IMG/VR virus record: IMGVR_UViG_3300010429_000387
Span: 224,001-288,000 of that record
Length of the DNA: 64,000 nucleotides
From: a virus
Lineage: Duplodnaviria; Caudoviricetes
Strand: one strand, 5' to 3'
Shown here: piece by piece, positions 28,323 through 64,000 of the stretch
Numbering within the stretch: position 1 is the stretch's first letter
How the letters are laid out: every line of letters starts with the position of its first letter
The notes under the pieces: model-generated
Told to the model about the DNA's origin: nothing
Database searches by the model: none
Seen by the model: the letters and a program-made list of their open reading frames with translations, nothing else
Translations under genes and position numbers: made by a program

Positions 28323-28331
28323 ATTCTATGA
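28323..28331 (+). promoter_or_regulatory. T-rich putative late-promoter element (ATTCTATGA)
   Basis: Intergenic, heads the holin-like/J-domain operon. Confidence 0.3.
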
Positions 28332-28353
28332 GCCCACTTTGGATGGAGGCACC

Positions 28354-28836
28354 ATGAACCTTGACGCTCTGGCTCAGGCGGTATTCAACCCACAAACCCT
28401 CTTCATCTGCATGGCTGTCTACGTCATCACCTACTTCGGTAGGAAGGTGATTGAGGGCACCTGGAAGATTCTCGTAGCCAACGGGACTTTCAAGCAGACA
28501 GTGACCCTCGACCGGCTCTGGAACGAGGTCTTCCTGCCCGTGTTTCCCGTCCTTGTGGGTGGGCTCATGGGGCTCATGGCGAAGACTTTTATCTGGCCTG
28601 AGATCACGAATGGTACCCGTGGTGGACGCATCCTCTATGGTGCCATTTGCGGTATGTTCTCGTCTTTCGTGTACAATCGTGTCCGGGCCTGGCTCAAGAG
28701 TGCCCCGTCGAAGGGTGCCAATGCGGCTGAGGATGACAAGGCTCTCCCCCCAAGTGCTTCGGAGCCTCCGGCTGCTGATGGGGCCACTACTCCTGTTGTA
28801 GTGACCACCAAGAAGGACGAGACCCCCAAGCCCTGA
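28354..28836 (+). CDS. holin-like membrane protein
   Basis: About three hydrophobic segments and a charged, Pro-rich C-tail; GGAGG upstream of ATG 28354; follows the tail genes. Confidence 0.5.
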   Translation: MNLDALAQAVFNPQTLFICMAVYVITYFGRKVIEGTWKILVANGTFKQTVTLDRLWNEVFLPVFPVLVGGLMGLMAKTFIWPEITNGTRGGRILYGAICGMFSSFVYNRVRAWLKSAPSKGANAAEDDKALPPSASEPPAADGATTPVVVTTKKDETPKP

Positions 28837-28850
28837 GCGTGAGTTGAGCC

Positions 28851-30149
28851 ATGCACAATGATCTCCCTCTGATTCAGAAGGTCGCCCGTAGTTGGGCAAG
28901 ACTTTCCTTTGAAGACCGGTACGCACGCCTTCTCCTCTCGATGTCCTTGGAGCAGGCCAAGAGCATCCTGGGGTTCCCTCCTGGGTCCAACCCAACTCCA
29001 ACGGAGATCACCAAGGCGTATCGAGCAAAGGCTTTGGAGAACCACCCGGATCGTGGGGGTGACCACACGAAGATGGTGGAGATCAATGTTGCCAAGGACA
29101 TCTTGGAGGGGAAGGGTCGGGCCACCTGGACTCCCGAACCAGCCCCTCGACCCCCTCGTAGGGAGCCTCCGAAGGCACCTGAGCCAGACTTCGTGATGGA
29201 GGGTCAGACCTTCGATCAGGCTTGGTCTGGCAACTCGCCCCCCGCTGGGGTTGAGTGGAAGTTCGTCTCGGTTCCTGAATACTACTGGGAGAAGACCTAC
29301 TACCCAGGGCACCGGATCTGGACCCTCTACGGGCAGACCGACTCCAAGCACATCTTCCTCGCAATCAAGGAGCGTGGGGAGAGCGCTGGAACCATCCCTA
29401 CCGACAAGGGGATGTTCACCAAGATGATGGAGGACTGGCAGGTCTCCTGGGTGGACGTTCCTCTGTCCCAGAACATCTCCAAGATCGCTACGAAGTATCT
29501 CAAGTCGGTGAGTACCGGCTGGGCTGATGGCTCCAAGCCCAAGCCCCCCAAGAAGTTCATCGCTTGGCCTGGTGGACGCCCAACCGATCAGATCATCAAG
29601 AAGCTCCCTCGTTCTGGGGGGGCCGCTCTCAAGGACATCTTGGTTGGAACCGGCCTTCTCAATGACGAGGATCCCTCCATCGCAGGGAGGAAGAGCGTTG
29701 TTGAGATTTACACCAAGTACAGCAAGGAGAAGATCCAGCGTCGGAAGGCGGAGGGGGCCTTCAAGGACGGGGCGGACAGCTACGACTTCTTCGTCCGTGT
29801 CAACGGGAAAGACTGTCAGTTGTCAGATTCCACGGTGGAGAACCTCAAGAAGCGGTTCATCCCGTGGGTTCTCAACTGGGAGATTTCCGAGGGTCGCCCG
29901 AAGAACCTGACCCGGATGCGTGGTGGTGGTCTGAAGTACCCGGCCTCGGAAGCCATCCAAGCCCTGGCCGATGCTCTGACCAATGAGCCTTCCTGGCTTC
30001 ACCTGGCGCTCATCAAGGCGTCGGAGGAGTACGACTCGAACAACAAGTCGGCCTCGTTGGCTGAGATTCGGTGTTCAATGACACTGAAGCAGGCGTCGGT
30101 GATCACTGGGATCCCGATGTACGACCTGTTCATGGTGCTCCATGGTTGA
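28851..30149 (+). CDS. J-domain (DnaJ-like) protein
   Basis: AKSILG...EITKAYRAKALENHPDRGGD...EINVAKDIL is a J-domain with an intact HPD motif. Confidence 0.8.
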   Translation: MHNDLPLIQKVARSWARLSFEDRYARLLLSMSLEQAKSILGFPPGSNPTPTEITKAYRAKALENHPDRGGDHTKMVEINVAKDILEGKGRATWTPEPAPRPPRREPPKAPEPDFVMEGQTFDQAWSGNSPPAGVEWKFVSVPEYYWEKTYYPGHRIWTLYGQTDSKHIFLAIKERGESAGTIPTDKGMFTKMMEDWQVSWVDVPLSQNISKIATKYLKSVSTGWADGSKPKPPKKFIAWPGGRPTDQIIKKLPRSGGAALKDILVGTGLLNDEDPSIAGRKSVVEIYTKYSKEKIQRRKAEGAFKDGADSYDFFVRVNGKDCQLSDSTVENLKKRFIPWVLNWEISEGRPKNLTRMRGGGLKYPASEAIQALADALTNEPSWLHLALIKASEEYDSNNKSASLAEIRCSMTLKQASVITGIPMYDLFMVLHG

Positions 30150-30717
30150 TCCGACCCCTGCCCCGACCGAGAAGTCCTTCGGAGAACGCACCTGGGAAGC
30201 CTTCAAGGCTACCATGGGCAAGCTCTGGGACTTCATCCGCTGGCTCAGTCCCAAGACCCTTGGGGTGATCCTGGCTGTGGTGGTCGTGGTGGGGGCCATC
30301 CTTCTCATCTCGATGGGCTTCAAGGAGCTTCAGGTTGGTGGGCTCCTTGGTTGGCTCCTGGGCAAGAAGCCCGCTGACGGGTCCAAGACCATTGAGATTG
30401 CCAACACAGTGGACCCCAAGAGGGTGGACAAGGATGGGAATCTCATCCCCATCGGGAAGCCAGACTCGAAGGGTGATACTCAGGCAGTGGTCGTTCCAAT
30501 CCAGGAGCCTGGGTTGTTCTCGGACCCCAAGACGGTGGTCTTCACCCCTCCCGGAGAGACCAAGCCCATCGAGGTGGTTCTCCCAGATGGGGTCACCAAC
30601 AAGGACGTGGACCAGGTCATCGTGGTCACTCCAAGCGTGATTGCGGTTACGGTCAAAGACAACTCTGGTGTACCTGCTCAGAAGGTTGATGATCTTCTGA
30701 AGAAGTATGGTGGATGA
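30142..30717 (+). CDS. membrane-anchored protein
   Basis: Strong TM helix LGVILAVVVVVGAILLISMG followed by a soluble domain. Confidence 0.65.
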   Translation: MVDPTPAPTEKSFGERTWEAFKATMGKLWDFIRWLSPKTLGVILAVVVVVGAILLISMGFKELQVGGLLGWLLGKKPADGSKTIEIANTVDPKRVDKDGNLIPIGKPDSKGDTQAVVVPIQEPGLFSDPKTVVFTPPGETKPIEVVLPDGVTNKDVDQVIVVTPSVIAVTVKDNSGVPAQKVDDLLKKYGG

Positions 30718-30992
30718 TGCCCAGCTCCAGCCCCCTCGATCAGTTCATCGCCTCCCGAGTCAAAGCCCGGTTTGCAGCCAAGGATACCGAGGAGAAGGAC
30801 AAGAAGAAGCTCCTGATGGCTATCTACAAGCGGATGCCCATCGGGAACAAGCATCTTCGTGGTGGCAAGCACACCATCATGTTCTCTGGCTCGTCTGCCA
30901 AGGAATACGGGGTAGACAACTACACTAGCGTCGTCCTCGAAGAGCTTTCGATGGAAGAGCTGAAGAAAGCAGCCAAGGCCGTCGGGGCCTGA
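30714..30992 (+). CDS. small protein with N-terminal PLDQFIASRVKARF tag
   Basis: 92 aa, ATGA overlap with the upstream gene; N-terminus shared with 31002. Confidence 0.7.
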   Translation: MMPSSSPLDQFIASRVKARFAAKDTEEKDKKKLLMAIYKRMPIGNKHLRGGKHTIMFSGSSAKEYGVDNYTSVVLEELSMEELKKAAKAVGA

Positions 30993-31001
30993 AGGATCGT
31001 C

Positions 31002-31898
31002 ATGAAACCTGAACTCAATCCTCTCGATCAGTTCATTGCCGCCCGAGTCAAGGACAGGTTTGCCTCCTCAACCAAGGTGGCTGATGTCAACGACTACCCG
31101 GCAGCCTACAACGCCACCAAGTCGGCTGATGCTGCTATTGCTGGGCTCATCACCACCTCCAAGCGGTATGAGAGTGCAGCCAAGTCGGCCCTGGCGGACC
31201 TCGCCAAGGCGGTGGACGGCATCCCGGCTGGTCTGGAGAAGCTCGGGGTCAGCCCCAAGGGCCTTCAGAGGTACCAGACCCAGGCAGTGAACTTGATCAA
31301 GGCTGCTCAGAAGGGCCACCCACTACGGGCCTACAGCACCTACAAGAGTGATGCTCCGATCAGCAAGCTCCAGAAGGTCCTGGTCACGCTCGGGAGTGCA
31401 GCCTTGAAGTCTTCGGGGGTTGGGACCAAGATTCTCAAGCCGGTCATGGTCCAGCACCTCTTCAAGACGGACGTGGCTCCGTCTCTTGATGCCCTCAAGA
31501 GTGCCTGTGATGACTGGTACGAGTCGGCAAGCAACGCCTCTCATGAGATCGAGCGATCCATTTCAGCCGGTGGTTGGCTTGCTGCTGAGCCAACCCGTTC
31601 TGGGTTCGGACCAGATCCAGAGTGGGAGAAGTATGCCAAGGCCCAGAGGGAGTTTGCCAAGGAAGCTCACGACCTGGCAGACATCGTCCGCCACAATGCC
31701 ATCGGGCTCCCCCTGGCAGCCTCCTCGTTCGAGGATTGCGTGGATGTGGACGTGTGCCTCAAGACCATGGGCAAGGCTTGTACGGACCTCCTCAAGCTCC
31801 ACGAGAAGTTCGGCAAGGAGTGGGGTGACTTCCGGTCCAAGCTCCAAGACAAGGAGACCACAGGTCAGCGCTCCTTGTTCGCCAGATCGGAGGGGTGA
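31002..31898 (+). CDS. helical protein with N-terminal PLDQFIAARVKDRF tag
   Basis: 298 aa, Ala/Lys-rich, AAGGA upstream. Confidence 0.7.
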   Translation: MKPELNPLDQFIAARVKDRFASSTKVADVNDYPAAYNATKSADAAIAGLITTSKRYESAAKSALADLAKAVDGIPAGLEKLGVSPKGLQRYQTQAVNLIKAAQKGHPLRAYSTYKSDAPISKLQKVLVTLGSAALKSSGVGTKILKPVMVQHLFKTDVAPSLDALKSACDDWYESASNASHEIERSISAGGWLAAEPTRSGFGPDPEWEKYAKAQREFAKEAHDLADIVRHNAIGLPLAASSFEDCVDVDVCLKTMGKACTDLLKLHEKFGKEWGDFRSKLQDKETTGQRSLFARSEG

Positions 31899-32521: not shown

Positions 32522-32701
32522 ATGGGTGCTAATGAAAAGCAGCAGCTATCTGAGCTGAAAGTAGAGGCAGAGCAGTTCCGGAAGGCCGTCGAAGACCTCC
32601 ATGAAGTAGTCACCACCCTGAGCGAGGCATCTCCAACAGAATCCGGGTTGCGGCTCACAGGGTCGGTAAAGGCTCAGGATCCGGTGTATCAAGTGGCCTG
32701 A
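32522..32701 (+). CDS. small coiled-coil protein (59 aa, not in the ORF track)
   Basis: MGANEKQQLSELKVEAEQFRKAVEDLHEVV...; GGAGG at 32511; its TGA overlaps the ATG of the helicase. Confidence 0.55.
   Translation: MGANEKQQLSELKVEAEQFRKAVEDLHEVVTTLSEASPTESGLRLTGSVKAQDPVYQVA
32682..32688 (+). promoter_or_regulatory. CGGTGTA promoter motif
   Basis: 12 nt upstream of ATG 32701; recurrent oriented motif. Confidence 0.6.
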
Positions 32702-34443: not shown

Positions 34444-34450
34444 CGGTGTA
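34444..34450 (+). promoter_or_regulatory. CGGTGTA promoter motif
   Basis: Intergenic, 12 nt upstream of ATG 34463. Confidence 0.6.
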
Positions 34451-35410: not shown

Positions 35411-38166
35411 AGGGCCTTCTGCGAAGTGTTCTCGACATTGATGGGGGCATCACCCAAGAGAACCTGGTCTCCAACTTCCAGAAGCTCTTGGCCTCCAAGG
35501 TTGAGTGGACCCAACCTGCCGATCAGAGGATCTTCGACTTTGCCAAGGTCTACTTCCATCAAAGGCTCGAACTTCCTGCCCGGCAGACGGTAGCGGACTA
35601 TTTTGAAGCCAAGAAGGACTACGAGGCTCAGGAGAGACTCAAGGACTTTGATGGGGTCACGGCGTACATCCGGACGAACTACGCCCACCTTCTCAGCACG
35701 ACGGTCGAGGAACAGAACAAGATCAAGGCTCTAGCCATCCTCAAAGAGGCCCAGGAGATCATCGCCAAGGGCCTCGTGATCGGGGATGAGAAGAAGCAGG
35801 GCCTTCGGGATGGGATCCTGCACTTTACCCAGAGTGCCCATCAGCTTCTCGTGTACGAGCACAACTCCCGTCTCCAGGGGAACATCCGGGAAGACGGGCA
35901 GGCTGTCTGGGATGAGTACCTGGACGCCAAGTCGAACAAGGCTCTCGCCTGGGGCAAGTTCTGCGGACTCAACAACATCGACAAGGTCATTCGAGGCATC
36001 AAGAAGGGTGAACTCTGGCTTCACGCTGCCTTCACAGGTGAGCTGAAGTGCCTTCCTGGAGATGCCACTGTCTTTGACCACCGGACAGGTACCAGGCGTT
36101 GCCTTTCCGAGCTGTACGCTTCTGGTGACCTCCCCGTTGTGACTGCCTTGGACCGAGAAGGTGAGACTTTCAACCTTCTCCCTGCCCCTGCTTCCCATCT
36201 GGTCCAGAATGGGGTTCGTGAGGTGTTTGACCTCAATCTCTCGTCCGGTCGGAGGGTTGGGGCTACAAGCAACCACAAGTTCTTCACCCCCTCTGGGTGG
36301 AAAGAACTTGGTGACTTGCATGAAGGTGACTTCGTAGCGGTACCTCGTCAGATGCGGGTGGCCGCAAAGACATCACTCTTCACAGATGCAGAGGTGAAGG
36401 TCGTCGGCTATCTTCTCGGTGACGGCTCCTTCAAGGAGTACATCTCGTTCACGGCATCCAATGAGCACATTCGAGATGACTTCAAGGAGTGCCTCGTTGA
36501 GATGGGCCTCCAGGAGGGTTCTGCGGACTACGTCACAGCTTCGTTCAGAGATGAGTTTTCAAACGACCGGGCTCCTTGCATTCGTGTGAGCCACAGCACG
36601 GGAGTTGGGAACTCGGAGATGGTGTCCCCTGTCAGATTGCTCCTGGACTCACTGGGACTTTGGGGTCTTGGTGCTGGGGACAAGCGAGTCCCCAATGAGT
36701 TGTTTGGCTTACCGGAGAATCAAGTAGCCCTCCTAGTGGGGGCCTTGTGGTCAACAGATGGGTCATGCTGCACCGGAGATTACGAGATGGGTGATCGAGC
36801 TACCCCGTGTCGTCGAAATGACATCACCTATGCCTCCAAGAGCTTGACTCTGTGCTCAGACATCCAGTCCCTCCTTTTGCGATTGGGTATCCAGTCTTCA
36901 GTCACCCAGGTAGATACTACCTACAAAGGTGAGCCCTACACGTTCTACACGGTGCGGGTAGTCACCAACCACTCAAAGCGAAAGTTCGTGGAGACCATCC
37001 ATGTGGTGGGCAAAGACTCCAGGTTTGCAGTCTTGTGGGGTCGGCTTCCAGATACCGACGGGAGGGTAGTTCCGTCGGTATTTCTTCCAGATGACCGCAA
37101 AGTACCCATGTCACGGGGGTACTATCGCTACTCCAAGTTCGCTAAGGACCGTCCAACAGTTACTCTTGAGTGGGCTAGAAAGTTCTCTCAACCGGGGGAC
37201 ACCCTCCTCAATCATGCCCTTGATGGGGACTTGGATTGGGAGCAGGTCAAGTCAGTCACCCGTCGTGGAATGGAGATGACCTACGATCTATCTGTTCCGA
37301 AACATCACTCTTTCGTGGTGAATGACATCGTGAGTCACAACACCACGTTTGCCATGAACTGGTGCTACAACCTCGTTACTCGGTACCGTTCCAACGTCTA
37401 CTACGTCACGTTGGAGATGCCCTACGAGCAGGTCCGCAAGAAAATCTACGTCATCCACTCGGAGAACCCCATCTTCGAGGAGATGGGCTACAAGCCTCTC
37501 GACTACGACAAGGTCTGTGCTGGAACTCTGACTCCTGAAGAGGAGGCGTTCTACCAGATCGTCATCAAGGACTTCTGCAACAACCCGGAGTATGGCTCCT
37601 TCGATGTCTGGGGTCCGGATGAGGATGTCACCACCGATGACATCAAGATGCAGGCGGAACTCCGGCACCAGCAGGAGGAGATCCACCTCCTGGTCATCGA
37701 CCACGGTGGCCTGGTTGAGGCCAGGAAGCGCAAGAGGGGTAAGGACTACACCATCGAGCTGAACTCAGTCCTACGGGATGCCAAGAAGCTCGCCCTTCAC
37801 TTCAACCACGGTGAGAAGGTCCCAGTCTTGTTGCTCTTCCAGATCAACCGAGACGGCAAGGACTACGCTGACAAGATGGAGGGCCGCTACAAGCTCAGGG
37901 CTCTCTCCTATGCCAACGAAGCTGAGCGCTCAGCGGACGTGATCACCACCACCTACCTGAACGAGGACCACCGAAAAGCAGGTACCGTGCTCTTCGACTG
38001 CCTCAAGCGTCGAGACGGAGCGTTTTTCGCACCCTTCCTGGCAGCCGTCCACTGGCCGACACAACGCATCCTGAATCACGAGACGTTCCATGGGGCCAAC
38101 GACAAGGGCCTCTCGATGGATGAAAGTCGAGCTGTTCAGGACATGATGTTCCAGATCCAGGTGTAG
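35407..38166 (+). CDS. dnaB: replicative DnaB-like helicase with intein
   Basis: GLNNID...GIKKGEL, Walker A AFTGELK/TT, TLEMP, LLVIDH, QINR and ERSADVI; 488 aa after splicing. Confidence 0.85.
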   Translation: MKGLLRSVLDIDGGITQENLVSNFQKLLASKVEWTQPADQRIFDFAKVYFHQRLELPARQTVADYFEAKKDYEAQERLKDFDGVTAYIRTNYAHLLSTTVEEQNKIKALAILKEAQEIIAKGLVIGDEKKQGLRDGILHFTQSAHQLLVYEHNSRLQGNIREDGQAVWDEYLDAKSNKALAWGKFCGLNNIDKVIRGIKKGELWLHAAFTGELKCLPGDATVFDHRTGTRRCLSELYASGDLPVVTALDREGETFNLLPAPASHLVQNGVREVFDLNLSSGRRVGATSNHKFFTPSGWKELGDLHEGDFVAVPRQMRVAAKTSLFTDAEVKVVGYLLGDGSFKEYISFTASNEHIRDDFKECLVEMGLQEGSADYVTASFRDEFSNDRAPCIRVSHSTGVGNSEMVSPVRLLLDSLGLWGLGAGDKRVPNELFGLPENQVALLVGALWSTDGSCCTGDYEMGDRATPCRRNDITYASKSLTLCSDIQSLLLRLGIQSSVTQVDTTYKGEPYTFYTVRVVTNHSKRKFVETIHVVGKDSRFAVLWGRLPDTDGRVVPSVFLPDDRKVPMSRGYYRYSKFAKDRPTVTLEWARKFSQPGDTLLNHALDGDLDWEQVKSVTRRGMEMTYDLSVPKHHSFVVNDIVSHNTTFAMNWCYNLVTRYRSNVYYVTLEMPYEQVRKKIYVIHSENPIFEEMGYKPLDYDKVCAGTLTPEEEAFYQIVIKDFCNNPEYGSFDVWGPDEDVTTDDIKMQAELRHQQEEIHLLVIDHGGLVEARKRKRGKDYTIELNSVLRDAKKLALHFNHGEKVPVLLLFQINRDGKDYADKMEGRYKLRALSYANEAERSADVITTTYLNEDHRKAGTVLFDCLKRRDGAFFAPFLAAVHWPTQRILNHETFHGANDKGLSMDESRAVQDMMFQIQV
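36049..37341 (+). mobile_element. intein with LAGLIDADG homing endonuclease (431 aa) in DnaB Walker A
   Basis: Starts CLPGD; block B TSNHKF; YLLGDG and LWSTDG motifs; ends TYDL...IVSHN followed by Thr. Confidence 0.92.
38159..38165 (+). promoter_or_regulatory. AGGTGTA variant of the promoter motif
   Basis: 9 nt upstream of ATG 38175. Confidence 0.4.
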
Positions 38167-38174: not shown

Positions 38175-38390
38175 ATGAGCTGCCTTCTATGTGGGGGGAC
38201 CGGCCTGAGGGTTGTATCTCGGGCCGGTGACCCCGTGCCTGGATACCCTCAGAACGGACACACCCGAACGGTCTTTGCTTCGACTACCTACGTGACTTGC
38301 GACTGCCGCATTGTTCGTCTAGGCCCCATTTCACCGAGCCTTGAGGTTCCAGCCCCAACCAGGTTCGAGAGGGTAGTGGACCGTGCATGA
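38175..38390 (+). CDS. small Zn-ribbon protein with C-terminal PTRFER tag
   Basis: CLLCGGTG...CDC; ATGA overlap with the next gene. Confidence 0.6.
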   Translation: MSCLLCGGTGLRVVSRAGDPVPGYPQNGHTRTVFASTTYVTCDCRIVRLGPISPSLEVPAPTRFERVVDRA

Positions 38391-43415: not shown

Positions 43416-43422
43416 CGGTGTA
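43416..43422 (+). promoter_or_regulatory. CGGTGTA promoter motif
   Basis: Intergenic, upstream of 43450. Confidence 0.55.
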
Positions 43423-43882: not shown

Positions 43883-43889
43883 CGGTGTA
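43883..43889 (+). promoter_or_regulatory. CGGTGTA promoter motif
   Basis: After the terminator, upstream of the AAA ATPase; reads CGGTG-TATGAT. Confidence 0.6.
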
Positions 43890-48180: not shown

Positions 48181-48480
48181 ATGGGGCTCCGGAAGCACAA
48201 GCAAGTCCTCACGCTTTCCCTTCAGCTCTACCAACGGGTGGGCCTTCTGACGGCTGAAGAGGCCGAGGGGTTCCGGCTCATGTACGCACGGGCCAGGACC
48301 CCAGCGGAACAGGAGCAGGTTCGAGCAGCCCTCGACCACCGATTCCACGGATGGAAGACCGAGCAGGACCGGTTCTCGAAGGTCCTTCGTGATGACGTTC
48401 TGGGGGATGACGAGGATGAGGACCCGCCTGAGCTGAGGGAGGCTTTGGAGCGTTCGAGGGTCCGCTTCGGTGTAGGGTGA
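48181..48480 (+). CDS. hypothetical protein
   Basis: 99 aa, motif-preceded; contains DRFSKVLRDD. Confidence 0.6.
   Translation: MGLRKHKQVLTLSLQLYQRVGLLTAEEAEGFRLMYARARTPAEQEQVRAALDHRFHGWKTEQDRFSKVLRDDVLGDDEDEDPPELREALERSRVRFGVG
48468..48474 (+). promoter_or_regulatory. CGGTGTA promoter motif
   Basis: 11 nt upstream of ATG 48486. Confidence 0.55.
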
Positions 48481-49031: not shown

Positions 49032-49786
49032 TGCCACTCCCCCACATCAGAACAGGCATTGCCGAGCTTGATGTTGCCCTGGGTACCGAGTGTCCAGGGT
49101 TCCCTCGGGGGGCCTTGACCCTTATTTGTGGCGGGGTTGGAACCGGGAAGTCAACTCTGGTCCGGCATCTGGCCCACTATGCAGCAACCATAGGGCACCA
49201 ACGGGTGCTCTTCTGTGATGCTGAGGGGAACCCGCCAGGCCGACATTCAAGTCTCATCCGTGAGGTAGGGGTTGATGGTCCAGTCGATGTTGTTCCAGGT
49301 TCATACACTTCTCCTTTTGATTATCAACAACCAAGTGACCTGGTGGGGCTATTCAATGCCATCCGAGCTTCAGTTCACCTGTATGACCTCATCATAGCGG
49401 ATGCCGTCAGCGTTCTAGGGTTGCCTCCAACTCCAGGGCAGGCTCCACAGATTGCGGCTAGGTCTAGGTTTCTCGGGTCGGCTATTCAGGGGTTGCGGTT
49501 GGAGAACTGTGCCCTGGTGATGGTCTTCCAGAGCCCGAGGAGTGGTCCTTTGGATCGGGGAGTCAACTCCCAACTTGTGACCCACCATGCCCGGCTGATC
49601 CTCGACCTTAGTGGGTTCACCGAAGGGGTGTACTCAGCACACATCGCCAAGGCGACCTGGCCGGTACAGGACGAGGAGTTCGGGTTCCGATATGGGGGTC
49701 CGAGTCAAGTCATTGCCGTCCCAAAGGCCAAGCCCATCGACCGATCCAAAATCCCCACCCGCTTCAACCGAGAGGATCCCCTATGA
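49031..49786 (+). CDS. RecA/RadA/KaiC-superfamily ATPase
   Basis: TGIAELDVALG...GFPRG...GGVGTGKS and LIIAD; ends PTRFNREDPL. Confidence 0.75.
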   Translation: MPLPHIRTGIAELDVALGTECPGFPRGALTLICGGVGTGKSTLVRHLAHYAATIGHQRVLFCDAEGNPPGRHSSLIREVGVDGPVDVVPGSYTSPFDYQQPSDLVGLFNAIRASVHLYDLIIADAVSVLGLPPTPGQAPQIAARSRFLGSAIQGLRLENCALVMVFQSPRSGPLDRGVNSQLVTHHARLILDLSGFTEGVYSAHIAKATWPVQDEEFGFRYGGPSQVIAVPKAKPIDRSKIPTRFNREDPL

Positions 49787-50951: not shown

Positions 50952-51320
50952 ATGAAACAAGCCAGGATGCTGCATGAAGCCATCTCGGCCGCCAATCGTG
51001 GTGAGCGGGTGATTGTGACCGCTCACCACACGAGCCGAGCCCTTTGGATCAAGGGTGAGGCTCGCAAGGCGGTAGCCAATGCCCTCCTCCAACAGGAGGG
51101 TCAGGACTTCATGCGGTTCAAGTCTGGCGGAGAAATTCGATTCTTCGCCCACACCAAAGAGGAAAAGCTCCGAGGCTTCAGGGGTAAGGTCTACCAGATT
51201 CAAGTAGATAGCCCCTATGATGAGGGAGACTCTCTTGAGGACTGGGAGCTGGACTCAAGGTACCTTCCCCCGAGTGGGCCGCACCCAAGTAGGTTCGAGA
51301 GGATTCTGAATGAAGACTGA
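50952..51320 (+). CDS. hypothetical protein with C-terminal PSRFER tag
   Basis: 122 aa between thyA and folA; GAGG upstream. Confidence 0.65.
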   Translation: MKQARMLHEAISAANRGERVIVTAHHTSRALWIKGEARKAVANALLQQEGQDFMRFKSGGEIRFFAHTKEEKLRGFRGKVYQIQVDSPYDEGDSLEDWELDSRYLPPSGPHPSRFERILNED

Positions 51321-51849
51321 TCCCCCTCGTATCATCGTTGCGATCAACCCTCAGGGTGTCATCGCAGTAAATGGTCAGATGCCATGGAAGAAGCCCGAGG
51401 ACCTGAAGCGCTTCAAGAAGGTCACGATGGGGTCAACGATCATCATGGGTCGAAAGACTTGGGATTCGATTGGACGTAGGTTCCTTCCGGGGAGGCGGAC
51501 CCTGGTTCTCAGTCGGACCCACCAGCCAGACGTGGTGACAGCACCCTCCTTGGAAGAAGGGCTGAAGAAGGCTCGTGACCTGGATTGGGCCAATGGCACT
51601 TGGGAGAAGGTTGACTGGTCTGGGAGGGATGTCTGGGTCGTAGGTGGGGCGGAGGTGTATGAGCAGGCATTTCCGTTGGTTGATGAGGTAGACCTCACCT
51701 TGGTCCTGGATTCGGTAGTTGAGTTGAGTCAGCCAAACGTCATCCGGCTCCCCACTTTCGTTTGTGGGATGCCAGGGTTCAAGGTGGTGGAGACCTCAAT
51801 CAACCCCGCCGACACTACTCTTACTCACTGTAGGTATAGGCGCACATGA
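51310..51849 (+). CDS. folA: dihydrofolate reductase
   Basis: MPW..PEDLKRFK, IMGRKTWDSI, LPGR and VVGGAEVY motifs. Confidence 0.92.
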   Translation: MKTDPPRIIVAINPQGVIAVNGQMPWKKPEDLKRFKKVTMGSTIIMGRKTWDSIGRRFLPGRRTLVLSRTHQPDVVTAPSLEEGLKKARDLDWANGTWEKVDWSGRDVWVVGGAEVYEQAFPLVDEVDLTLVLDSVVELSQPNVIRLPTFVCGMPGFKVVETSINPADTTLTHCRYRRT

Positions 51850-52190
51850 AGCACTTCGCAGTTGAAACCTTGGGGAACACAAGCCTCCGTGTGGTCGAGG
51901 CAGTCGTTCGGGCAGCAGCCAGTTCGGGATACTCGTTCTCTCGGATCGAGTCACTTGACCGAACCAAAGTTGGCTCTACCGAGTTCCAGAGGTTTAGAGT
52001 GGGTGCCGACCCCACAGCCCTTCTTGAGGTCCTGTTTTCGGAAGGCCGGGGCACCATCAGCCCAGACTGCCTGGTGCGCTTGAAGTCGAGAAACGGAAAG
52101 GTCCCGTTTACCCTACTCCTTGCTGCCCCGAGGGAGCCGAAGGTTTACCGGGGTCCTGGGGACCCTTACTGGGAGCGTCAGTTCGACTGA
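51846..52190 (+). CDS. hypothetical protein
   Basis: ATGA overlap with folA; ends PYWERQFD. Confidence 0.55.
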   Translation: MKHFAVETLGNTSLRVVEAVVRAAASSGYSFSRIESLDRTKVGSTEFQRFRVGADPTALLEVLFSEGRGTISPDCLVRLKSRNGKVPFTLLLAAPREPKVYRGPGDPYWERQFD

Positions 52191-52195: not shown

Positions 52196-52204
52196 TTTCT
52201 ATCA
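52196..52204 (+). promoter_or_regulatory. T-rich putative late-promoter element (TTTCTATCA)
   Basis: Intergenic, heads the 52254-56013 island. Confidence 0.3.
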
Positions 52205-52253
52205 GCCTTGCCTTGGTGACCCATCTGACGACGGTGCCAAGGGAGACCTTCTC

Positions 52254-54805: not shown

Positions 54806-55066
54806 ATGCCCCACGACTACGACCGTACTACGACTGCCGGTGTGAACTTCAACCAGATGGTTGGCAAGCCTGCTGAGGCGGATGAGGCCCTCACCAAAGC
54901 ATACCAGGCCCTCGTGAACTTCAAGCTGGGCATGGATGCCATGCACGAGATCCCTGCCACCCTGAAGCCTTACTACCAGCAGGTGATGAAGGCCATGGAC
55001 GTGGTGATCAAGGCCCAGAAAGAGTCCTACCAGCTCCGCATGATGATGAGGAAGCTCCCTCTCTGA
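54806..55066 (+). CDS. small helical protein
   Basis: ATG 54806 follows the previous stop (MPHDYDRTTTAG...); 86 aa. Confidence 0.65.
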   Translation: MPHDYDRTTTAGVNFNQMVGKPAEADEALTKAYQALVNFKLGMDAMHEIPATLKPYYQQVMKAMDVVIKAQKESYQLRMMMRKLPL

Positions 55067-56013
55067 TGGACCCGATCACCCTCACCGTCCTTGAGCGCTA
55101 CATCCTAGGGTACCCACCCCCTGGGATGGCTACACGGGTTGCCAGACGCTTCGTAGCTGGTCTGGCTGACCAGCTTCAGAGAATGATGGGCGACCTTCTA
55201 GGGAGCACCCTGGAGGCCAAGAAGGGCAAGGATGTAGCTGAGTGGCTGGAGGCCAACTTCCACTTCCTTGGGACCAAGACCCCCAAGGGCGGGAAGGTGC
55301 TCAAGGACCAGGTGAACAAGCTCCACTGGTTCCTGAAGTTCGGCCTCGGTCAGCAGCAGGATCCGGAGCGGCTTCGCCCTACCATCGAAGCAGCCTGGTC
55401 GGACATCCAGAAAGAGTTGGGTACCCTAGTCAAGCTCTTCTCCGAGGAGGGCGGGAAGGTCGTGCCCAAGGAGATGAAGGTTGGGGCCAACACCTACCTG
55501 AACATCTCGGGGTTCTCCGAAGACCAGCTCACCACCTACATCAAGAGCCTCGAACAGGTCTTCGCTGAGCTGAAGGGCTGGAGGAAGAAGGCCCTGGCCG
55601 GGGGACTCAAGGTTGCCCTGGCGGGACCCTCCGACTTCCGAGGCACCTCGGGCGGGAAATACAAGTCGAGCGAGGACACCCTCTATGTCAGGGCAACCCC
55701 CGCTGTCCTCAAGCGGACCCGTGGTTCCTACGGAGCCTTCGACTACATCATCGTACATGAGCTGGGTCACCGGTACGACTACAAGCGGAAGCCGGGCATA
55801 GACTTCGACCGACCCGAGTGGTGGACCAGCAGGTACAGCCGAACCGAGGGGGAGAGCTTCGCTGAGTTGTTCGCCCTGACCAACTTCGGGATCACCGGGC
55901 AAGGGGACCAGGCGGTCCTCGACAAGTTCGAGGATTACATGACCACTGGAAAGGTTCCCGAGACTGAGCCGGTGGAGCTGCCAGACCACCTGAAGCGGCT
56001 TCTCGGCAAGTAG
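55066..56013 (+). CDS. zincin-like metallopeptidase domain protein
   Basis: HELGH plus downstream ESFAE; N-terminal ATRVARRF tag. Confidence 0.7.
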   Translation: MDPITLTVLERYILGYPPPGMATRVARRFVAGLADQLQRMMGDLLGSTLEAKKGKDVAEWLEANFHFLGTKTPKGGKVLKDQVNKLHWFLKFGLGQQQDPERLRPTIEAAWSDIQKELGTLVKLFSEEGGKVVPKEMKVGANTYLNISGFSEDQLTTYIKSLEQVFAELKGWRKKALAGGLKVALAGPSDFRGTSGGKYKSSEDTLYVRATPAVLKRTRGSYGAFDYIIVHELGHRYDYKRKPGIDFDRPEWWTSRYSRTEGESFAELFALTNFGITGQGDQAVLDKFEDYMTTGKVPETEPVELPDHLKRLLGK

Positions 56014-56044: not shown

Positions 56045-56051
56045 CGGTGTA
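56045..56051 (+). promoter_or_regulatory. CGGTGTA promoter motif
   Basis: CGGTG-TATGAT, 9 nt upstream of the clpX ATG; no SD. Confidence 0.65.
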
Positions 56052-56060: not shown

Positions 56061-58388
56061 ATGCCTAGCCCGATCAAGTGCTCGTTCTGTGGCCGTCCTC
56101 GGAACGAGGTCAAGAACATCATTGCTGCCGACTCTGAGGCTGGCCCCTTCATTTGCAACCGTTGTGTGGAGACGGCAGCCAACGAAATCAAGGCTGGGGC
56201 AAAGAGGGGTGGCTTCGAGCAGAAGAAAGAGGATCCCCTTCGCAAGCCGAGGGAGATCCGGGACTACCTAGACCAGTACGTGATCGGGCAAGACCAGGCC
56301 AAGGTGGACATTGCAATCGCAGTGTACAACCACTTCAAGCGTCGGAAGCTCCGGGACGCCAAGCCTGAGGATGGCATCGATCTGGTCGAGATCGAGAAGA
56401 GCAACATCTTGCTCCTTGGGCCATCGGGTTGCCATCGTAAGGGTCAGCTTGTCTTGATGTATGATGGTACCCTGAAAGCGGTGGAGAACGTCCAAGTTGG
56501 GGACCAACTCATGGGGCCTGACTCCACTCCTCGAAATGTGCTGGAACTTCATAGGGGGGTGGAGGAAATGGTTGAGATTGTGCCCCTCAAGGGTGAGCCC
56601 TGGGTGGTCAACCGGGGGCACATTCTGACGCTGGTTCGTACTTGCTACAACGGTGGTTCTGGGTACCGTCCTGTAAACGAGGTCAAGGATGTACCCCTTC
56701 GTGATTGGCTTGGTTGGTCAAGGACTCAGAAGTCAGTTCACAAGCTGTTTCGTGTACCTGTCGAGTTCAAAGCACAGGAGGAGCTACCACTGGACCCATA
56801 CTTTCTGGGCGTCTTGCTTGGTGATGGGTCACTCGGTGTGACTCCCCGAGTCACCACCGAAGACCCAGAAATCCTTGAGGAAACTCGTAGGCAGGCGGCC
56901 AACTTCGGTTTGGTCGTCTCTATCTACGACTACAATGAGGAGAAGTGCCCCTCCTATGCCCTGTGTAAGGTAGAGGGTCCAGGTGGTCTCCAAGACGAGG
57001 CTTCTCGCAATCCTATTGCACAGAGGTTGGCGGGTCTGGATCTTCTGGAAGTGACGGGTGAGTCCAAGTTCATCCCTCACTGCTACAAGGTATCCTCCAG
57101 AGCAGATCGACTGGCAATCCTTGCGGGGCTCCTGGACACTGATGGATCCCTTGATGAGGACGGGTGTGGTTTCGACTTCATCAACAAGTCCAAAGAGCTT
57201 GTTGATGACCTGGCCTTCATCGCTAGAAGCCTTGGTTTTGCTTGCTATCCTCAGCCATGTGTGAAGGGGTGCCAGACTGGGGTGGAGGGCATCTACTACC
57301 GGATGTTCATTTCTGGTGACGTGGCTGAGATTCCAACCAAGGTTGAGAGGAAGAAGGCCCTTGCTCGGAAAGCCATCAAGAATGTGCTTCGGACAGGGTT
57401 CAAAACCCGTGACCTACCCCCGGAGGAATACTTCGGGTTTGTCCTCGATGGGGACCACCGTTACCTGCTTGACGACTTCACTGTGACCCATAATACGGGC
57501 AAGACTCACATTGCCAGGACCATCGCTCGGATGCTTCAGGTCCCCTTCCATGTTGGTGACGCCACCCGGCTGACCCAGGCTGGCTACGTCGGGGATGACG
57601 TGGAGACCCTTCTTCAGGGGCTCGTCCTGGATGCTGGGGGCGACATCGAGCGGGCACAGTGGGGGATCATCTTCCTCGATGAGGTGGACAAGATCGCCCG
57701 AGGTTCTGGCCGGGACAGGGCTGGGTACCGAGACGTGTCGGGAGAGGGGGTCCAGCAGTCCCTCCTCAAGCTCCTCGAAGGTTCGAGGGTCAACGTCCCC
57801 CGTGGTGGCGGAAAAGCTGGGATGATGATGGCATATGACACCATCGACACTACCAACATCCTGTTCATCTGTGCTGGTTCCTTTGCTGGGATCGAACCCA
57901 TCGTGGCCCAGAGGGTGAACAAGGGGTCGGCTCGTCTCGGGTTTGGGGCCAACACAGAGAAGAAGAAGCTCGACCTGTCGGCCTCCTACCTGGCTGCCAA
58001 CGAAGACGACATCATGGAGTTCGGCATCATTCCCGAGATGATGGGCCGTCTCCCGGTCATCACCACGACCATCGAGCTTTCCGAGGATGAGATGATTCGG
58101 GTTCTCACCGAGCCCCGGAACAGCATCATCAAGCAGGTGAAGAGCCTGTTCCAGATGGACGGTGTCTGCCTGGACTTCACGGAGGATGCTCTGAGGGCCA
58201 TCGCTCGGGAAGCCAAGAAGCGCCCAACTGGGGCACGGGCACTTCGGAGCATCGTCGAGAAGACCCTGAAGACCTTTGCCTATGACACCCCCAGCAACGA
58301 GACTATCGAGCGGATCCTTGTGACTGAGGACACCGTGAATGGTGGGCAGGGGGTTATCACTCTTCGGGAGCAGCGAGCAGAGGCGTGA
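56061..58388 (+). CDS. clpX: ClpX AAA+ unfoldase with intein
   Basis: CSFCG..CNRC zinc domain, VIGQ, GPSG/TGKT, GYVG, DEVDK, RDVSGEGVQQ, LGF loop and GARALR; 420 aa after splicing. Confidence 0.93.
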   Translation: MPSPIKCSFCGRPRNEVKNIIAADSEAGPFICNRCVETAANEIKAGAKRGGFEQKKEDPLRKPREIRDYLDQYVIGQDQAKVDIAIAVYNHFKRRKLRDAKPEDGIDLVEIEKSNILLLGPSGCHRKGQLVLMYDGTLKAVENVQVGDQLMGPDSTPRNVLELHRGVEEMVEIVPLKGEPWVVNRGHILTLVRTCYNGGSGYRPVNEVKDVPLRDWLGWSRTQKSVHKLFRVPVEFKAQEELPLDPYFLGVLLGDGSLGVTPRVTTEDPEILEETRRQAANFGLVVSIYDYNEEKCPSYALCKVEGPGGLQDEASRNPIAQRLAGLDLLEVTGESKFIPHCYKVSSRADRLAILAGLLDTDGSLDEDGCGFDFINKSKELVDDLAFIARSLGFACYPQPCVKGCQTGVEGIYYRMFISGDVAEIPTKVERKKALARKAIKNVLRTGFKTRDLPPEEYFGFVLDGDHRYLLDDFTVTHNTGKTHIARTIARMLQVPFHVGDATRLTQAGYVGDDVETLLQGLVLDAGGDIERAQWGIIFLDEVDKIARGSGRDRAGYRDVSGEGVQQSLLKLLEGSRVNVPRGGGKAGMMMAYDTIDTTNILFICAGSFAGIEPIVAQRVNKGSARLGFGANTEKKKLDLSASYLAANEDDIMEFGIIPEMMGRLPVITTTIELSEDEMIRVLTEPRNSIIKQVKSLFQMDGVCLDFTEDALRAIAREAKKRPTGARALRSIVEKTLKTFAYDTPSNETIERILVTEDTVNGGQGVITLREQRAEA
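56430..57494 (+). mobile_element. intein with LAGLIDADG homing endonuclease (355 aa) in ClpX Walker A
   Basis: Starts CHRKGQ; block B NRGHIL; LLGDG and LAGLLDTDG motifs; ends VTHN followed by Thr. Confidence 0.92.
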
Positions 58389-58439: not shown

Positions 58440-58448
58440 TTTTGATAG
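58440..58448 (+). promoter_or_regulatory. T-rich putative late-promoter element (TTTTGATAG)
   Basis: Intergenic, heads the 58475-59721 island. Confidence 0.3.
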
Positions 58449-58474
58449 AGACCTAGTGGTAGGAGACCCAGCTC

Positions 58475-59152
58475 ATGAGCCTTTCGATCATCGCCAACGT
58501 AGTGTCCCGCTACGCTGCCTCGACCCGCACTGCTGGGTTGAAGGAAGTGACCTTCAAGGAGTTCCAGCAGGCGCTCGCCAACGCTGGTTGGCCTTCCCCT
58601 GAATATGCCCACACGAAGCGGACCATGGATGCCTACTACAAGGACCGTGGGACCGAGGTGGCGCACAAGACCCAGATCCTCACCCGTGGCAAGGTGACCC
58701 AAGAGCACTTCTATGCCAACCCAGATTACCTTGGTGAGGGGAATTCCAAGGAAGCAGCCACGAACATCGTGGTCCTGGATGACGATGACCTTGAGGGCCT
58801 TGATGAGAAGGCCAAGAAGGCTTGGAAGGGCTACACCTACAAGATGACCTATGAGGTTGTCTCCCCGGAGTCGGCCGAAGAGGGTGACGCTGAGGATCGT
58901 GGGTGGGAAGAGGAGGGCTCGGAGCCCTACGACACCCTGGAAGAGGTCCTCAAGGCGGTGGATGACAAGTCCTGGCTTGAGTGGTCCTCCAGCAGCCCGG
59001 ACGGGAAGCGTGACTGGATCATCTCCCAGGCTGAGGAAGACTACAGCTCGGGGAACAACACCACCTATCACCTCTGGATCGAGCGCAAGGACGGCAAGCC
59101 TCTCGGAAAGGAAGAACTGGCCTACATCAAGAAGTCCCTTCGGCTTCACTGA
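58475..59152 (+). CDS. acidic phage protein with N-terminal IANVVSRY tag
   Basis: AGGAG SD; TYEVVSPESAEEGDAEDRGW segment. Confidence 0.75.
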   Translation: MSLSIIANVVSRYAASTRTAGLKEVTFKEFQQALANAGWPSPEYAHTKRTMDAYYKDRGTEVAHKTQILTRGKVTQEHFYANPDYLGEGNSKEAATNIVVLDDDDLEGLDEKAKKAWKGYTYKMTYEVVSPESAEEGDAEDRGWEEEGSEPYDTLEEVLKAVDDKSWLEWSSSSPDGKRDWIISQAEEDYSSGNNTTYHLWIERKDGKPLGKEELAYIKKSLRLH

Positions 59153-59166
59153 GTAGGAGCAGTTCC

Positions 59167-59646
59167 ATGCCGACTCCGGTTGACAAATACTACGAGGAAG
59201 TAAAGGACAAGAACCCTTCCTACAGTGAGGAACAGGCTTGGGCAACGGCTTGGAGCATCTACTGCAAGCACGTCAATCCAGGCTCGAAGTCTTGCAAGAA
59301 ACCACCCTCGGAGTACCTGAAGGGGAAGTCTGCCTCAGACCCACTCCAGGACTTCCAGGATGTGCTGATGGCAAGGAGAGTTGCCTCCAGATTCAAGGAA
59401 TCCTTCAAGTACGAGCAGAAGGAAACCAAGGAACACAAGGTCGAGAGAATCTCCAAGAAGATTCGAGATGCTACGGGTCTCTCGAAGGGGGTCTCAGAGG
59501 CCATTGCTGACGCCTTCGTCCGAGGGCGTGAGGTGGCTCGCCTTGCCATTCAGAAGGGCTGGCCCTTGGATGGGGACATCATCGAGGGTCCAACTGGGAC
59601 CCTCTCCTTGGAGGCGATCAAGACAGCTTCTCGTGAGGGAGAGTAG
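59167..59646 (+). CDS. ChaB-like domain protein with internal ARRVASRF tag
   Basis: EEQAWATAWSIYCK resembles ChaB; AGGAG SD. Confidence 0.6.
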   Translation: MPTPVDKYYEEVKDKNPSYSEEQAWATAWSIYCKHVNPGSKSCKKPPSEYLKGKSASDPLQDFQDVLMARRVASRFKESFKYEQKETKEHKVERISKKIRDATGLSKGVSEAIADAFVRGREVARLAIQKGWPLDGDIIEGPTGTLSLEAIKTASREGE

Positions 59647-62916: not shown

Positions 62917-63305
62917 GCAGTAGCCCGGCACGCAAGCTCCGGAGGGCAGGGGGCGGGGGTCAGGTACCTAACCCAGCCAAGGCCCTTGAGGGGCTGGCTC
63001 AGGTAGGAGACCTGGCCTCGAAGATCGACAGGTTCGTGGAAGCCTCAGAGCGGATGCAGGAGCTTGCCGAGGGGTATGCAGGTCTTGACGAGATCATCGA
63101 GACCTTGAAAACCGCCCAAGCGGCGGTAGAGTCTGTCCAGGAACGCCTTACTTCCATGGAGGCCCAGCAAGAGCTTCACCGGAAGACGGTTCTCCGAATA
63201 CTCTACTACTTCAAGCAGTTCTTCACTGAAGGCTCTCTGATTCCATCCGAGCTGGAAGCCCTTGAAGCCCAACTCACCCCGACCAAGGCAGATGAACCAG
63301 GATGA
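62913..63305 (+). CDS. coiled-coil protein
   Basis: Heptad-like helical stretch; ATGA overlaps. Confidence 0.6.
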   Translation: MSSSPARKLRRAGGGGQVPNPAKALEGLAQVGDLASKIDRFVEASERMQELAEGYAGLDEIIETLKTAQAAVESVQERLTSMEAQQELHRKTVLRILYYFKQFFTEGSLIPSELEALEAQLTPTKADEPG

Positions 63306-63523
63306 AGACCTCAAGAACTCACGAGCCGACCAAGCAGATAGCTCCGATAGGTCCTCTGGCTTGGGACGCCCTCCTGTCGAAGGCCATCAAGCGGGCCGAA
63401 GCCAAGGGGGACCCACGTTTGGAAGGTCTTCGGAAGGCCATCCGAGAGGGGAAGTCGGAGTCAATTCTCCGGAGGTACGGGATCATCTCCGAGCGGGACC
63501 TGGAGCGAGAGTTCCCAGGTTGA
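63302..63523 (+). CDS. hypothetical protein
   Basis: ATGA overlap; 73 aa. Confidence 0.55.
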   Translation: MKTSRTHEPTKQIAPIGPLAWDALLSKAIKRAEAKGDPRLEGLRKAIREGKSESILRRYGIISERDLEREFPG

Positions 63524-63816
63524 GTGACCCCTCAGAGGTACTTCTTCAGGCTTTTCTCGATGGTAACTTTGAGCGAGCCTACTCAGCAGCCCTTGAACTA
63601 CAGGTAGCCTATCGAGAAGCACTGGCCGAAGCCTCGAAAGTGAGATTCAAGCTGAACTTCGGGACGGGTATCTGTCAGAACTGCGAGGGACTCAAGGCAG
63701 GGCCAGGTGTCACTGCCACTTGTTTCCAGATTCAGCGGTGTGACTTCAAGAACATCAAGGAGGGGGACGAAGATCCACATCAGGCCCGTGTCATCGACAA
63801 GTTGACCTCCAAGTAG
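63520..63816 (+). CDS. Cys-cluster hypothetical protein
   Basis: TTG start overlapping the previous TGA inferred; CQNC...C....C. Confidence 0.5.
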   Translation: MSDPSEVLLQAFLDGNFERAYSAALELQVAYREALAEASKVRFKLNFGTGICQNCEGLKAGPGVTATCFQIQRCDFKNIKEGDEDPHQARVIDKLTSK

Positions 63817-63887
63817 AAGTTGACTAAATTCCGATGACACCACATCATACCTCCGACCCTTCTAAATTGAATGACCGGTACCGTACC

Positions 63888-63894
63888 CGGTGTA
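63888..63894 (+). promoter_or_regulatory. CGGTGTA promoter motif
   Basis: Intergenic, upstream of the final partial ORF. Confidence 0.55.
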
Positions 63895-63934
63895 CTGAGG
63901 CTAGAGCCTACCAGATGAGAAAGGACCAACACAG

Positions 63935-64000
63935 ATGAAAGAGAGATCCAAGAGCGACCTCCTTGCGGAGCAGTTGCTCACGGCGAAGGAAGCCGAGTTG
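63935..64000 (+). CDS. 3'-truncated ORF (MKERSKSDLLAEQLLTAKEAEL...)
   Basis: AAGGA SD; open to the window end. Confidence 0.5.
   Translation, partial: MKERSKSDLLAEQLLTAKEAEL

Follow-up and report, generated by a model that had tools for sequence, protein, structure and literature searches.

Two mutually exclusive peptide labels follow two upstream motif classes in a huge phage: a putative ClpX-docking motif and a C-terminal tag

The 64,000-nucleotide (nt) stretch of phage DNA analyzed here (the window; positions refer to it, and genes are named by their first position) is the minus strand of G000:C1:15338-79337, where G000 is a 129-kb IMG/VR record with a CheckV completeness of 27%. Proteins encoded on it carry one of two short linear labels: the N-motif, in its general form [LI]-[AI]-x-x-V-x-x-R-[FYW] and mostly located near the N-terminus, and the C-tag, P[TS]RF[EN]R, located just ahead of the C-terminus. 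Over six phage records each label is confined to one of two upstream motif classes, the N-motif to a T-rich element and the C-tag to GGTGTA, and the two labels are mutually exclusive. We tentatively favour a reading in which two putative promoter classes drive two sets of labelled proteins, the N-motif would dock on the phage-encoded unfoldase ClpX and the C-tag would be an address or disposal label.

As outlined in Table 1, every N-motif gene in the window lies in a unit headed by the T-rich element and all three C-tag genes lie in units headed by GGTGTA, as an earlier note on this DNA had described. The co-occurrence also holds beyond the window, and the classes separate instead of being distributed independently: when the sequence upstream of each gene was followed in the six records until a motif of one class or the other was reached, C-tag genes led to GGTGTA 65 times and to the T-class 5 times, N-motif genes 2 and 19 times (Fisher p = 4e-13 for C-tag against N-motif), and other genes 511 and 244 times. 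Counted as distinct unit heads, C-tag genes gave 47/5 (GGTGTA/T-class) and N-motif genes 2/18. An N-terminal N-motif and a C-tag were never combined in one protein, which was likewise part of the earlier description.

The relatives used for comparison were picked via PolA and comprise G004 (512,571 bp, direct terminal repeats, complete), G001 (183 kb), G003 (87 kb, first 80 kb used), G005 (229 kb) and G006 (145 kb); the short names G0, G1, G3, G4, G5 and G6 correspond to G000, G001, G003, G004, G005 and G006. The host phage of the window is an uncultured huge phage, of which a complete 512-kb relative is known. GC content is 49-51% in the relatives versus 58% in G000, a gap which helps to tell peptide-level from DNA-level conservation. 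Furthermore, G000 is syntenic with G004 253-367 kb, and therefore the accessory arm of G004 has no counterpart on the G000 contig.

In the approximately 41,000 residues encoded on the G000 contig the C-tag pattern was found in three proteins and nowhere else, each time 4-5 residues before the stop codon, with zero occurrences over 500 residue shuffles. The ends of 38175, 49031 and 50952 thus read as had been reported, whereas two looser examples had to be given up: the RVRFGVG end of 48181 (48181..48480, + strand) results from translation through a CGGTGTA at 48468 that overlaps the coding sequence, and the YWERQFD end of 51846 (51846..52190, + strand) is ordinary family sequence. G004 encodes 39 called proteins with [TS]RF[EDNQ]R at most 30 residues from the C-terminus, compared to about 0.5 expected from composition and a shuffle maximum of 1, and a six-frame census with the wider pattern RF[EDNQK]R gave 58 reading frames. 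With a second gene caller, 49, 47 and 29 C-tagged genes were counted in G004, G005 and G006, respectively, and zero in G001 and G003, for which core regions only are covered; in the three tag-rich records the C-tag is present on 7-12% of the called genes. The 39 G004 tags make use of all six codons for Arg and of both codons each for Phe and Glu, and this free synonymous choice indicates selection at the peptide level. The tags also persist between genomes of 49% and 58% GC and are found on both strands ahead of varied downstream contexts. The C-tag is genuine and selected as a peptide.

Proline precedes the motif directly in 88/127 tags, and the linker further upstream is rich in Pro and Glu. 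Two types of end can be distinguished, namely type 1, E-[DP]-V-I-stop, which ends exactly four residues past the motif in 59/127 tags, and type 2, I-L-x-[DE]-[DE] followed by variable acidic ends, 5-24 residues past the motif. The carriers are small (median ~130 amino acids (aa)) and mostly orphan accessory proteins; Pfam assigned zero families to the ten C-tagged G004 proteins tested, and some G004 carriers constitute one Cys-x-x-[YF] small-protein family. Back-translated searches found exact PTRFEREDVI in 7 IMG/VR contigs, and a full-text literature search on the tag strings retrieved no paper with PTRFER, nor with TRFER together with 'phage'. The tag is kept in the G004 orthologues of 49031 and 50952, which end in KIPTRFEREDVI and PRTRFERILEDDD directly before the stop codon. 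In G003 and G004 the gap between DnaB and primase is too small for a counterpart of 38175. Syntenic with 49031-49786, G003 exhibits at 14117-14239 (minus strand) a 40-codon open frame which ends in EIPTRFNREGPV and overlaps the thyA start exactly like the tagged KaiC-like gene in the window; this frame may well be what a deletion left of a C-tagged gene. The three window carriers look like accessory insertions.

The strict N-motif, [IM]A.[RKN]V..R[FYW], has 6 matches in the contig versus 0.006 in residue shuffles; the motif can also be summarised as [LI]-x-x-R-V-x-x-R-[FY]. In every record the motif is enriched in the first 40 residues (15 versus 1.7 expected in G004, 8 versus 0.4 in G001), and most copies are located at residues 4-16. 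Further copies are internal (residue 68 of 59167; residue 353 of the protein at -46430), at the extreme C-terminus directly before the stop codon (IISRVVKRYRG in G001, VLASRVAARVKAQPSIR in G004) or in tandem (55066, 73980 and several relatives). With the motif removed, BLAST sorted the bodies of the carriers into at least 20 groups, and in its sequence context the N-motif behaves as a modular linear motif. The general claim that unrelated proteins carry short linear labels is thus supported, with two such labels. Of six N-terminal tags listed earlier the motif is real, and three entries require qualification: the copy in 59167 is internal (residue 68 of 159) and not N-terminal, 58475 contains a variant that deviates from the strict pattern by one residue (IIANVVSRY), and the degenerate LIQKVARSW of 28851 is credible solely through clean copies in relatives of its family. 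Beyond that list, -46430 and 73980 also carry the motif, both outside the window.

The phage clpX is the consistent genomic partner of the N-motif. N-motif genes make up 5/12 of the genes nearest to clpX in G004 (p = 3e-5), 5/12 in G000 (p = 0.002) and 6/9 in G001 (p = 1e-5); for G003 p = 0.09 was obtained. Moreover, 12 ClpX loci from viral contigs were compared, one of which is G003 itself and two of which are near-identical. Where ClpX is at least 55% identical, N-motif genes follow clpX in every lineage examined. The gene directly downstream starts with the motif in G000, G001, G003, G004, L094, L095/L097, L096, L098, L099 and L112, in L113 the motif-initial gene follows after a 213-nt gap, and in L104 the motif opens the second and third downstream genes. 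Lineages differ in the body of the downstream gene, which encodes a J-domain protein or a zincin in some, and a 59167-family member or an orphan in others. At the four loci with ClpX 42-47% identical no such genes were present. In the clade G010/G011 clpX is again followed by N-motif genes, a zincin among them; a 55066 homologue of G010, located 37 kb from clpX, has no motif, whereas the clpX-adjacent zincin has it.

The phage ClpX is of canonical type and contains the zinc-binding N-domain (PF06689, E = 5.8e-11), whose C-x-x-C...C-x-x-C aligns to solved ClpX structures. Comparison of the intein-free G003 orthologue with these structures revealed a GYVG pore loop, LGF at the IGF loop and KAG at the RKH loop; with the LGF loop kept, host ClpP could dock. 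A search for ClpP (PF00574) gave zero matches in G000, G001, G003 and the complete G004.

Located in flexible tails or linkers, the N-motif is carried by orphans and, where the type is nameable, by zincin metallopeptidases and J-domain proteins, and none of the recognisable structural proteins carries the motif; for most N-motif and C-tag proteins Pfam and PHROGs returned nothing. The best characterized carrier, 55066, exhibits two copies, ITLTVLERY and MATRVARRF, in a flexible N-terminal tail. Its family comprises 252 homologues from huge-phage contigs, and 55066 itself has zero matches among GenBank phages; the alignment contains an invariant H231-E232-x-x-H235 and E263/E267, and its consensus begins with RVAxRF. 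The AlphaFold2 model has a mean pLDDT of 88, with values above 90 for the body and 46-50 for residues 1-30, which include both copies, and Foldseek matches were weak (E ~0.02) and all gluzincin peptidases. At least four N-motif carriers of G004 contain HExxH. In the 59167 family the motif is present in 59/90 homologues, where it follows the N-domain, opens the sequence of split forms or closes the protein at its extreme C-terminus. A relative of 28851 located directly downstream of clpX in L094 carries two clean motif copies.

Past the window end, at 73980-75419, a second N-motif zincin with HEIGH and two motif copies is encoded, directly followed by a 783-aa protein (75714-78065) whose N-terminal DCSGSM resembles a vWA metal site by eye. 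Many 59167-family homologues share a third ending, ...[DE]-x-[LF]-G-[DE]-L-G-V-[IV]-[IVL]-stop (for example G004 274222-274701 and G001 303-617), and the window copy ends otherwise.

With respect to the upstream elements, no other upstream 6-mer was as enriched as GGTGTA in any of the first four records examined (11 versus 0.9 expected in G000, 83 versus 8.7 in G004); ahead of C-tag units the element reads (t)cGGTGTA. In G004, 57 GGTGTA sites lie 15-19 nt before starts that were called blind to the motif, and the listing shows no Shine-Dalgarno sequence. The Shine-Dalgarno frequency with GGTGTA was 0.05 compared to 0.29, a value from 19 sites only, all with spacings of at least 18 nt. No -35 box was found near the GGTGTA sites. 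The short spacing without Shine-Dalgarno sequence suggests leaderless mRNAs, and we infer that GGTGTA is a -10-type promoter element which would give rise to them. A second spacing class, 33-47 nt, carries a Shine-Dalgarno sequence. The element is kept at orthologous positions ahead of clpX, the AAA ATPase gene and 34463, and because it heads SNF2, DnaB, PolA, thymidylate synthase/DHFR and clpX genes, an early/middle class is plausible. In G004 two divergent C-tagged genes (222294-223754) share a palindromic intergenic region with back-to-back GGTGTA (attagttaccac...CCGGTGTA...), which looks like a bidirectional promoter.

The T-rich element, TT(n)AT(A/G)G-like with the forms TTTCTATGAG, TTTTGATAG and CTTATAG, is weaker than GGTGTA and is kept at orthologous gaps in the 49-51% GC relatives; CTTATA and TTATAG rank among the upstream words that follow next in enrichment in G004. 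A zero-or-one-occurrence expectation-maximisation (ZOOPS-EM) search for it converged on Shine-Dalgarno-like GAGG, and a regular expression was used instead. Its reported position ahead of tail genes (9151 and 14731) was verified, with tail/virion PHROG matches downstream, and two further units upstream are also headed by it. A late promoter is plausible for this class because it heads tail-fibre and baseplate operons.

Table 1 Labelled genes, clpX and upstream elements in the window (window coordinates).
Feature	Position	Strand	Remarks
C-tagged 71-aa protein, Cys-rich N-terminus	38175..38390	+	ends in PAPTRFERVVDRA before the stop; own AGGTGTA 15 nt upstream
C-tagged KaiC/RecA-like P-loop protein	49031..49786	+	ends in KIPTRFNREDPL before the stop
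C-tagged 122-aa orphan	50952..51320	+	ends in PHPSRFERILNED before the stop
J-domain protein	28851..30149	+	Pfam DnaJ; degenerate N-terminal copy LIQKVARSW
N-motif protein	30714..30992	+	PLDQFIASRVKARFAA; N-terminus paralogous to that of 31002
N-motif protein	31002..31898	+	PLDQFIAARVKDRFAS; G001 orthologue retains IAARVKVRF
N-motif zincin (gluzincin) metallopeptidase	55066..56013	+	HELGH at residue 231; invariant E263/E267
N-motif protein	58475..59152	+	MSLSIIANVVSRY; directly downstream of clpX, behind conserved TTTTGATAG element
Internal-motif protein	59167..59646	+	LMARRVASRF, residues 67-76, between conserved N-domain and variable C-part
clpX with Hint/LAGLIDADG intein	56061..58388	+	Pfam; CGGTGTA 15 nt before ATG
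CGGTGTA	32682..32688	+	before SNF2 helicase gene; short spacing (leaderless-type)
CGGTGTA	34444..34450	+	before 34463; kept in G001, G003, G004
AGGTGTA	38159..38165	+	before C-tagged gene 38175
CGGTGTA	43193..43199	+	before 43238; long spacing, 44 nt
CGGTGTA	43416..43422	+	before 43450; long spacing and Shine-Dalgarno sequence
CGGTGTATGAT	43883..43889	+	before AAA ATPase gene 43927
CGGTGTA	48165..48171	+	heads unit 48181-52190: two C-tagged genes, NT5C, ThyA, DHFR
CGGTGTATGAT	56045..56051	+	before clpX; kept in G001, G003, G004
T-class TTTTTCTTATAGCTC	9151..9165	+	before structural operon; downstream proteins match tail/virion PHROGs
T-class CTTTTATGGCTAC	14731..14743	+	before gene for 2623-aa virion protein
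T-class promoter-like ATTCTATGAGCC	28323..28334	+	heads unit 28339-32506
T-class-like TTTGAT	47002..47007	+	23 nt before 47025; kept in G003
T-class TTTCTATCAGCC	52196..52207	+	heads unit 52254-56013; kept in G003
T-class TTTTGATAGAGACC	58440..58453	+	just past clpX stop; TTTGAT(A/T) at equivalent site in G001, G003, G004

In the reading we tentatively favour, the N-motif would be a docking peptide for the zinc-binding N-domain of the phage ClpX, comparable to the XB tail of SspB, and would keep late-produced peptidases and co-chaperones attached to the unfoldase, with tandem copies adding avidity for the ClpX hexamer. The N-motif cores ALRVAARF, SLRVAARF and ISRVVKRY resemble ALRVVK of the XB tail over 4-5 residues. 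GGTGTA would act as the -10-type element of leaderless early/middle mRNAs, and the T-rich element as the late promoter common to tail and baseplate operons. The C-tag would address its carriers to one shared partner or mark them for disposal by it; that this is a common intracellular partner, as proposed in the earlier note, is a reasonable guess, and candidate readers of the C-tag are the N-motif zincin peptidases or the pore of ClpX with its altered RKH loop.

Several points weigh against this reading. The XB likeness is a lead which, at 4-5 residues, could be due to chance. About two thirds of the G004 N-motif genes lie far from clpX, and the adjacency of the others could reflect a co-regulated module whose members share another partner. 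Late expression would be just as compatible with a virion role, given that tail and baseplate proteins are encoded in T-class units too. As for the pairing itself, ~45% of the genes were unassignable to either promoter class, and the T-class pattern was partly tuned on the upstream regions of N-motif genes and is partly circular there; the part that is independent of this pattern is that GGTGTA heads 2/35 N-motif genes, compared to a third of the other genes and half of the C-tag genes. The gene calls come from a heuristic of our own, and the second caller favours GGTGTA in its choice of starts. Among the RNA runs, X4, declared as 'RNA-Seq', has a flat depth and looks like DNA, and X14 and X15 contained zero phage reads.

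Docking of the N-motif on some other shared partner, such as host DnaK, the membrane or another phage protein, with clpX as a co-regulated neighbour, has a modest chance of being correct. It agrees with the position of most G004 N-motif genes away from clpX and with the presence of the CN-hydrolase and other conserved genes without the motif in the clpX cluster, and an amphipathic Arg/Val/aromatic helix is generic. Nevertheless, the gene directly after clpX retains the motif as its body changes, the zincin paralogue far from clpX is devoid of it, and the motif resembles the XB tail, all of which speaks against this alternative.

The earlier note had proposed that the N-motif addresses proteins to the virion. 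A sequence that targets them to the capsid or virion, of the kind used by phage T4, by which late cargo would be packed for injection while the C-tag leads to an intracellular hub, appears unlikely to us. N-motif genes do lie in units of the class that heads tail and baseplate operons, with copies mostly at residues 4-16, and motif ends of the form R-[FY]-A-[AS] would fit a basic-x-Ala protease site, albeit in ~6-7 of 22 cases only by our own count. In addition, the Atlas feature search placed 59167 near prohead-protease-associated clusters (score 0.84-0.85, a lead only) and returned nothing for 58475; a Pfam hidden Markov model gave no confirmation of the prohead-protease-associated domain in 59167. 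Yet the motif is on no recognisable structural protein, every nameable carrier is either a zincin peptidase or a J-domain protein, internal, C-terminal and tandem copies exist as well, and a virion address leaves the linkage to clpX unexplained.

It is similarly improbable that both labels belong to a single disposal machine run by the phage, each making up one half of it. The C-tag would then be a built-in degron of early accessory proteins, late zincins and J-domain helpers would dock by the N-motif on the ClpX zinc-binding domains, and the resulting ClpX-metallopeptidase protease would clear the tagged early proteome on schedule in a phage without its own ClpP.

That the motifs are non-functional, either as leftovers of common descent at paralogous termini or as by-products of DNA or RNA signals at gene ends, is very improbable and largely refuted by codon freedom and body-group diversity. 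In its favour, 30714 and 31002 are N-terminal paralogues, some G004 tag carriers form the Cys-x-x-[YF] family and the GAGAGG Shine-Dalgarno sequence of the next gene overlaps the tag codons in all three window C-tag genes. However, a by-product of GAGAGG is ruled out by the freely varying synonymous codons of the 39 G004 tags, tags stand on both strands and before all kinds of context, they persist between genomes of 49% and 58% GC, and the N-motif carriers belong to at least 20 unrelated body groups.

The window genes are nearly all on the + strand. The left half of the window contains genes for very large virion proteins, among them 14771 with tail-fibre and Ig-like PHROG matches and 23349 with tail-protein PHROG matches, and a Baseplate_J protein is encoded just upstream of the window; structural annotation of this left arm is thin, Baseplate_J and the Ig-like/tail-fibre PHROG matches being the sole ones found. 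From 32.7 kb on, genes for an SNF2 helicase, DnaB with intein, a DnaG zinc finger, PolA and an AAA ATPase follow, and further on for NT5C, ThyA, DHFR, a CN-hydrolase and ClpX with intein. The sole match of the replication-region DNA was a weak one to one uncultured 485-kb phage. DNA near-identical to 48001-58000 was observed in anaerobic-digester and wastewater metagenome runs, with at least half of the sampled words present in seven runs from five studies dated 2016-2025.

In the T-class unit 28339-32506 one membrane protein weakly resembles holins (phrog_1299, E = 0.002), 30142 is predicted to encode another membrane protein, and the product of 31895 begins with a sequence like a signal peptide; located after the tail genes, the unit may be a lysis cassette with embedded J-domain and N-motif genes. 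Around clpX a conserved order was observed in distant huge-phage clades, consisting of a ~120-aa protein, the CN-hydrolase, an N-motif peptidase (in some lineages), clpX and N-motif genes, as seen in the window at 51846-59646 and in L094-L099, L104, L112 and L113; the CN-hydrolase beside the unfoldase belongs to the nitrilase superfamily. The clpX intein is absent in G001 and G003 and present in G004, and a contig of run X4 from a wastewater sample joins 56428 to 57495 with one extra base and thus represents an intein-free allele. The DnaB-like helicase 35407-38166 is split by an intein with a LAGLIDADG domain; its orthologues in G001, G003 and G004 comprise ~490 aa and appear intein-free.

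Huge phages encode hundreds of orphan proteins, which the C-tag would sort into functional classes without the need for homology. The N-motif, which marks a ClpX-centred set of peptidases and co-chaperones, would do likewise, and pull-downs could make direct use of both labels. Should the N-motif dock on ClpX, the phage would possess an unfoldase with its own family of tethered enzymes. The promoter pairing would furthermore offer a sequence-only route to separating temporal classes in uncultured huge phages.

Among known systems, leaderless -10-only promoters of Actinobacteria and Deinococcus carry TANNNT a few nt before the start codon. GGTGTA is likewise a single short element at a fixed 15-19 nt from the start without a Shine-Dalgarno sequence; it differs in that its conserved part is GGTG upstream of TA, and its transcription start is a predicted one only. 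For the C-tag three comparisons can be drawn. ClpX recognizes C-terminal degrons such as LAA of ssrA and RRKKAI of MuA, the ssrA tag being attracted by the RKH loop. The type-1 C-tag shares the fixed register to the free carboxylate (...FER-E-D-V-I-COOH), and it is grafted on unrelated proteins in a phage that encodes ClpX; however, its sequence is unrelated, type-2 ends are variable, the phage ClpX is without the RKH loop and no phage ClpP was found in the genomes searched. Cargo-loading peptides of encapsulins, which form HK97-fold shells, have a GSLxIGSLK-like consensus; these too are C-terminal behind a flexible Pro-rich linker on unrelated cargo of an HK97-fold shell system, but the C-tag consensus is unrelated to theirs and its carriers belong to the non-structural promoter class. 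In zincin metallopeptidase (MPTase) systems a peptidase is accompanied by small, fast-diverging proteins with a conserved C-terminal peptide of the FxSxx-COOH type (Kaur et al. 2020, PMC7159879). Here, too, zincins occur with many small, fast-evolving proteins that share a C-terminal peptide, and a putative vWA-type neighbour is present (73980/75714), whereas the tagged genes are scattered over 0-250 kb of G004 and not paired with a peptidase, PTRFER is unlike the FxSxx, RxD or acidic motifs, and no radical-SAM or MoxR partner was seen.

For the N-motif, the capsid targeting sequence (CTS) of the T4 internal proteins IPI-III and Alt is one parallel, strictly N-terminal and followed by a gp21 cleavage site. 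Both are labels of about ten residues that unrelated proteins of a large phage, made late or in the case of the N-motif putatively so, have in common at the N-terminus; in contrast to the CTS, the N-motif is position-agnostic and no clear cleavage site follows, A-[AS] being present in ~6-7/22. The XB tail of SspB, RGGRPALRVVK, binds the ClpX N-domain (PMC3983244). Compared to this tail the N-motif is mostly N-terminal, longer (it ends in R-[FY]) and sometimes tandem, and it is attached to peptidases and J-domain proteins instead of an SspB-fold adaptor, with binding being predicted. The N-motif resembles the tail, over 4-5 residues, as a short hydrophobic/basic peptide with an (A/S)LRV(V/A)-like core on a putatively flexible terminus, which in some copies is likewise the extreme C-terminus (IISRVVKRYRG before the stop in G001), and a ClpX zinc-binding domain is encoded alongside.

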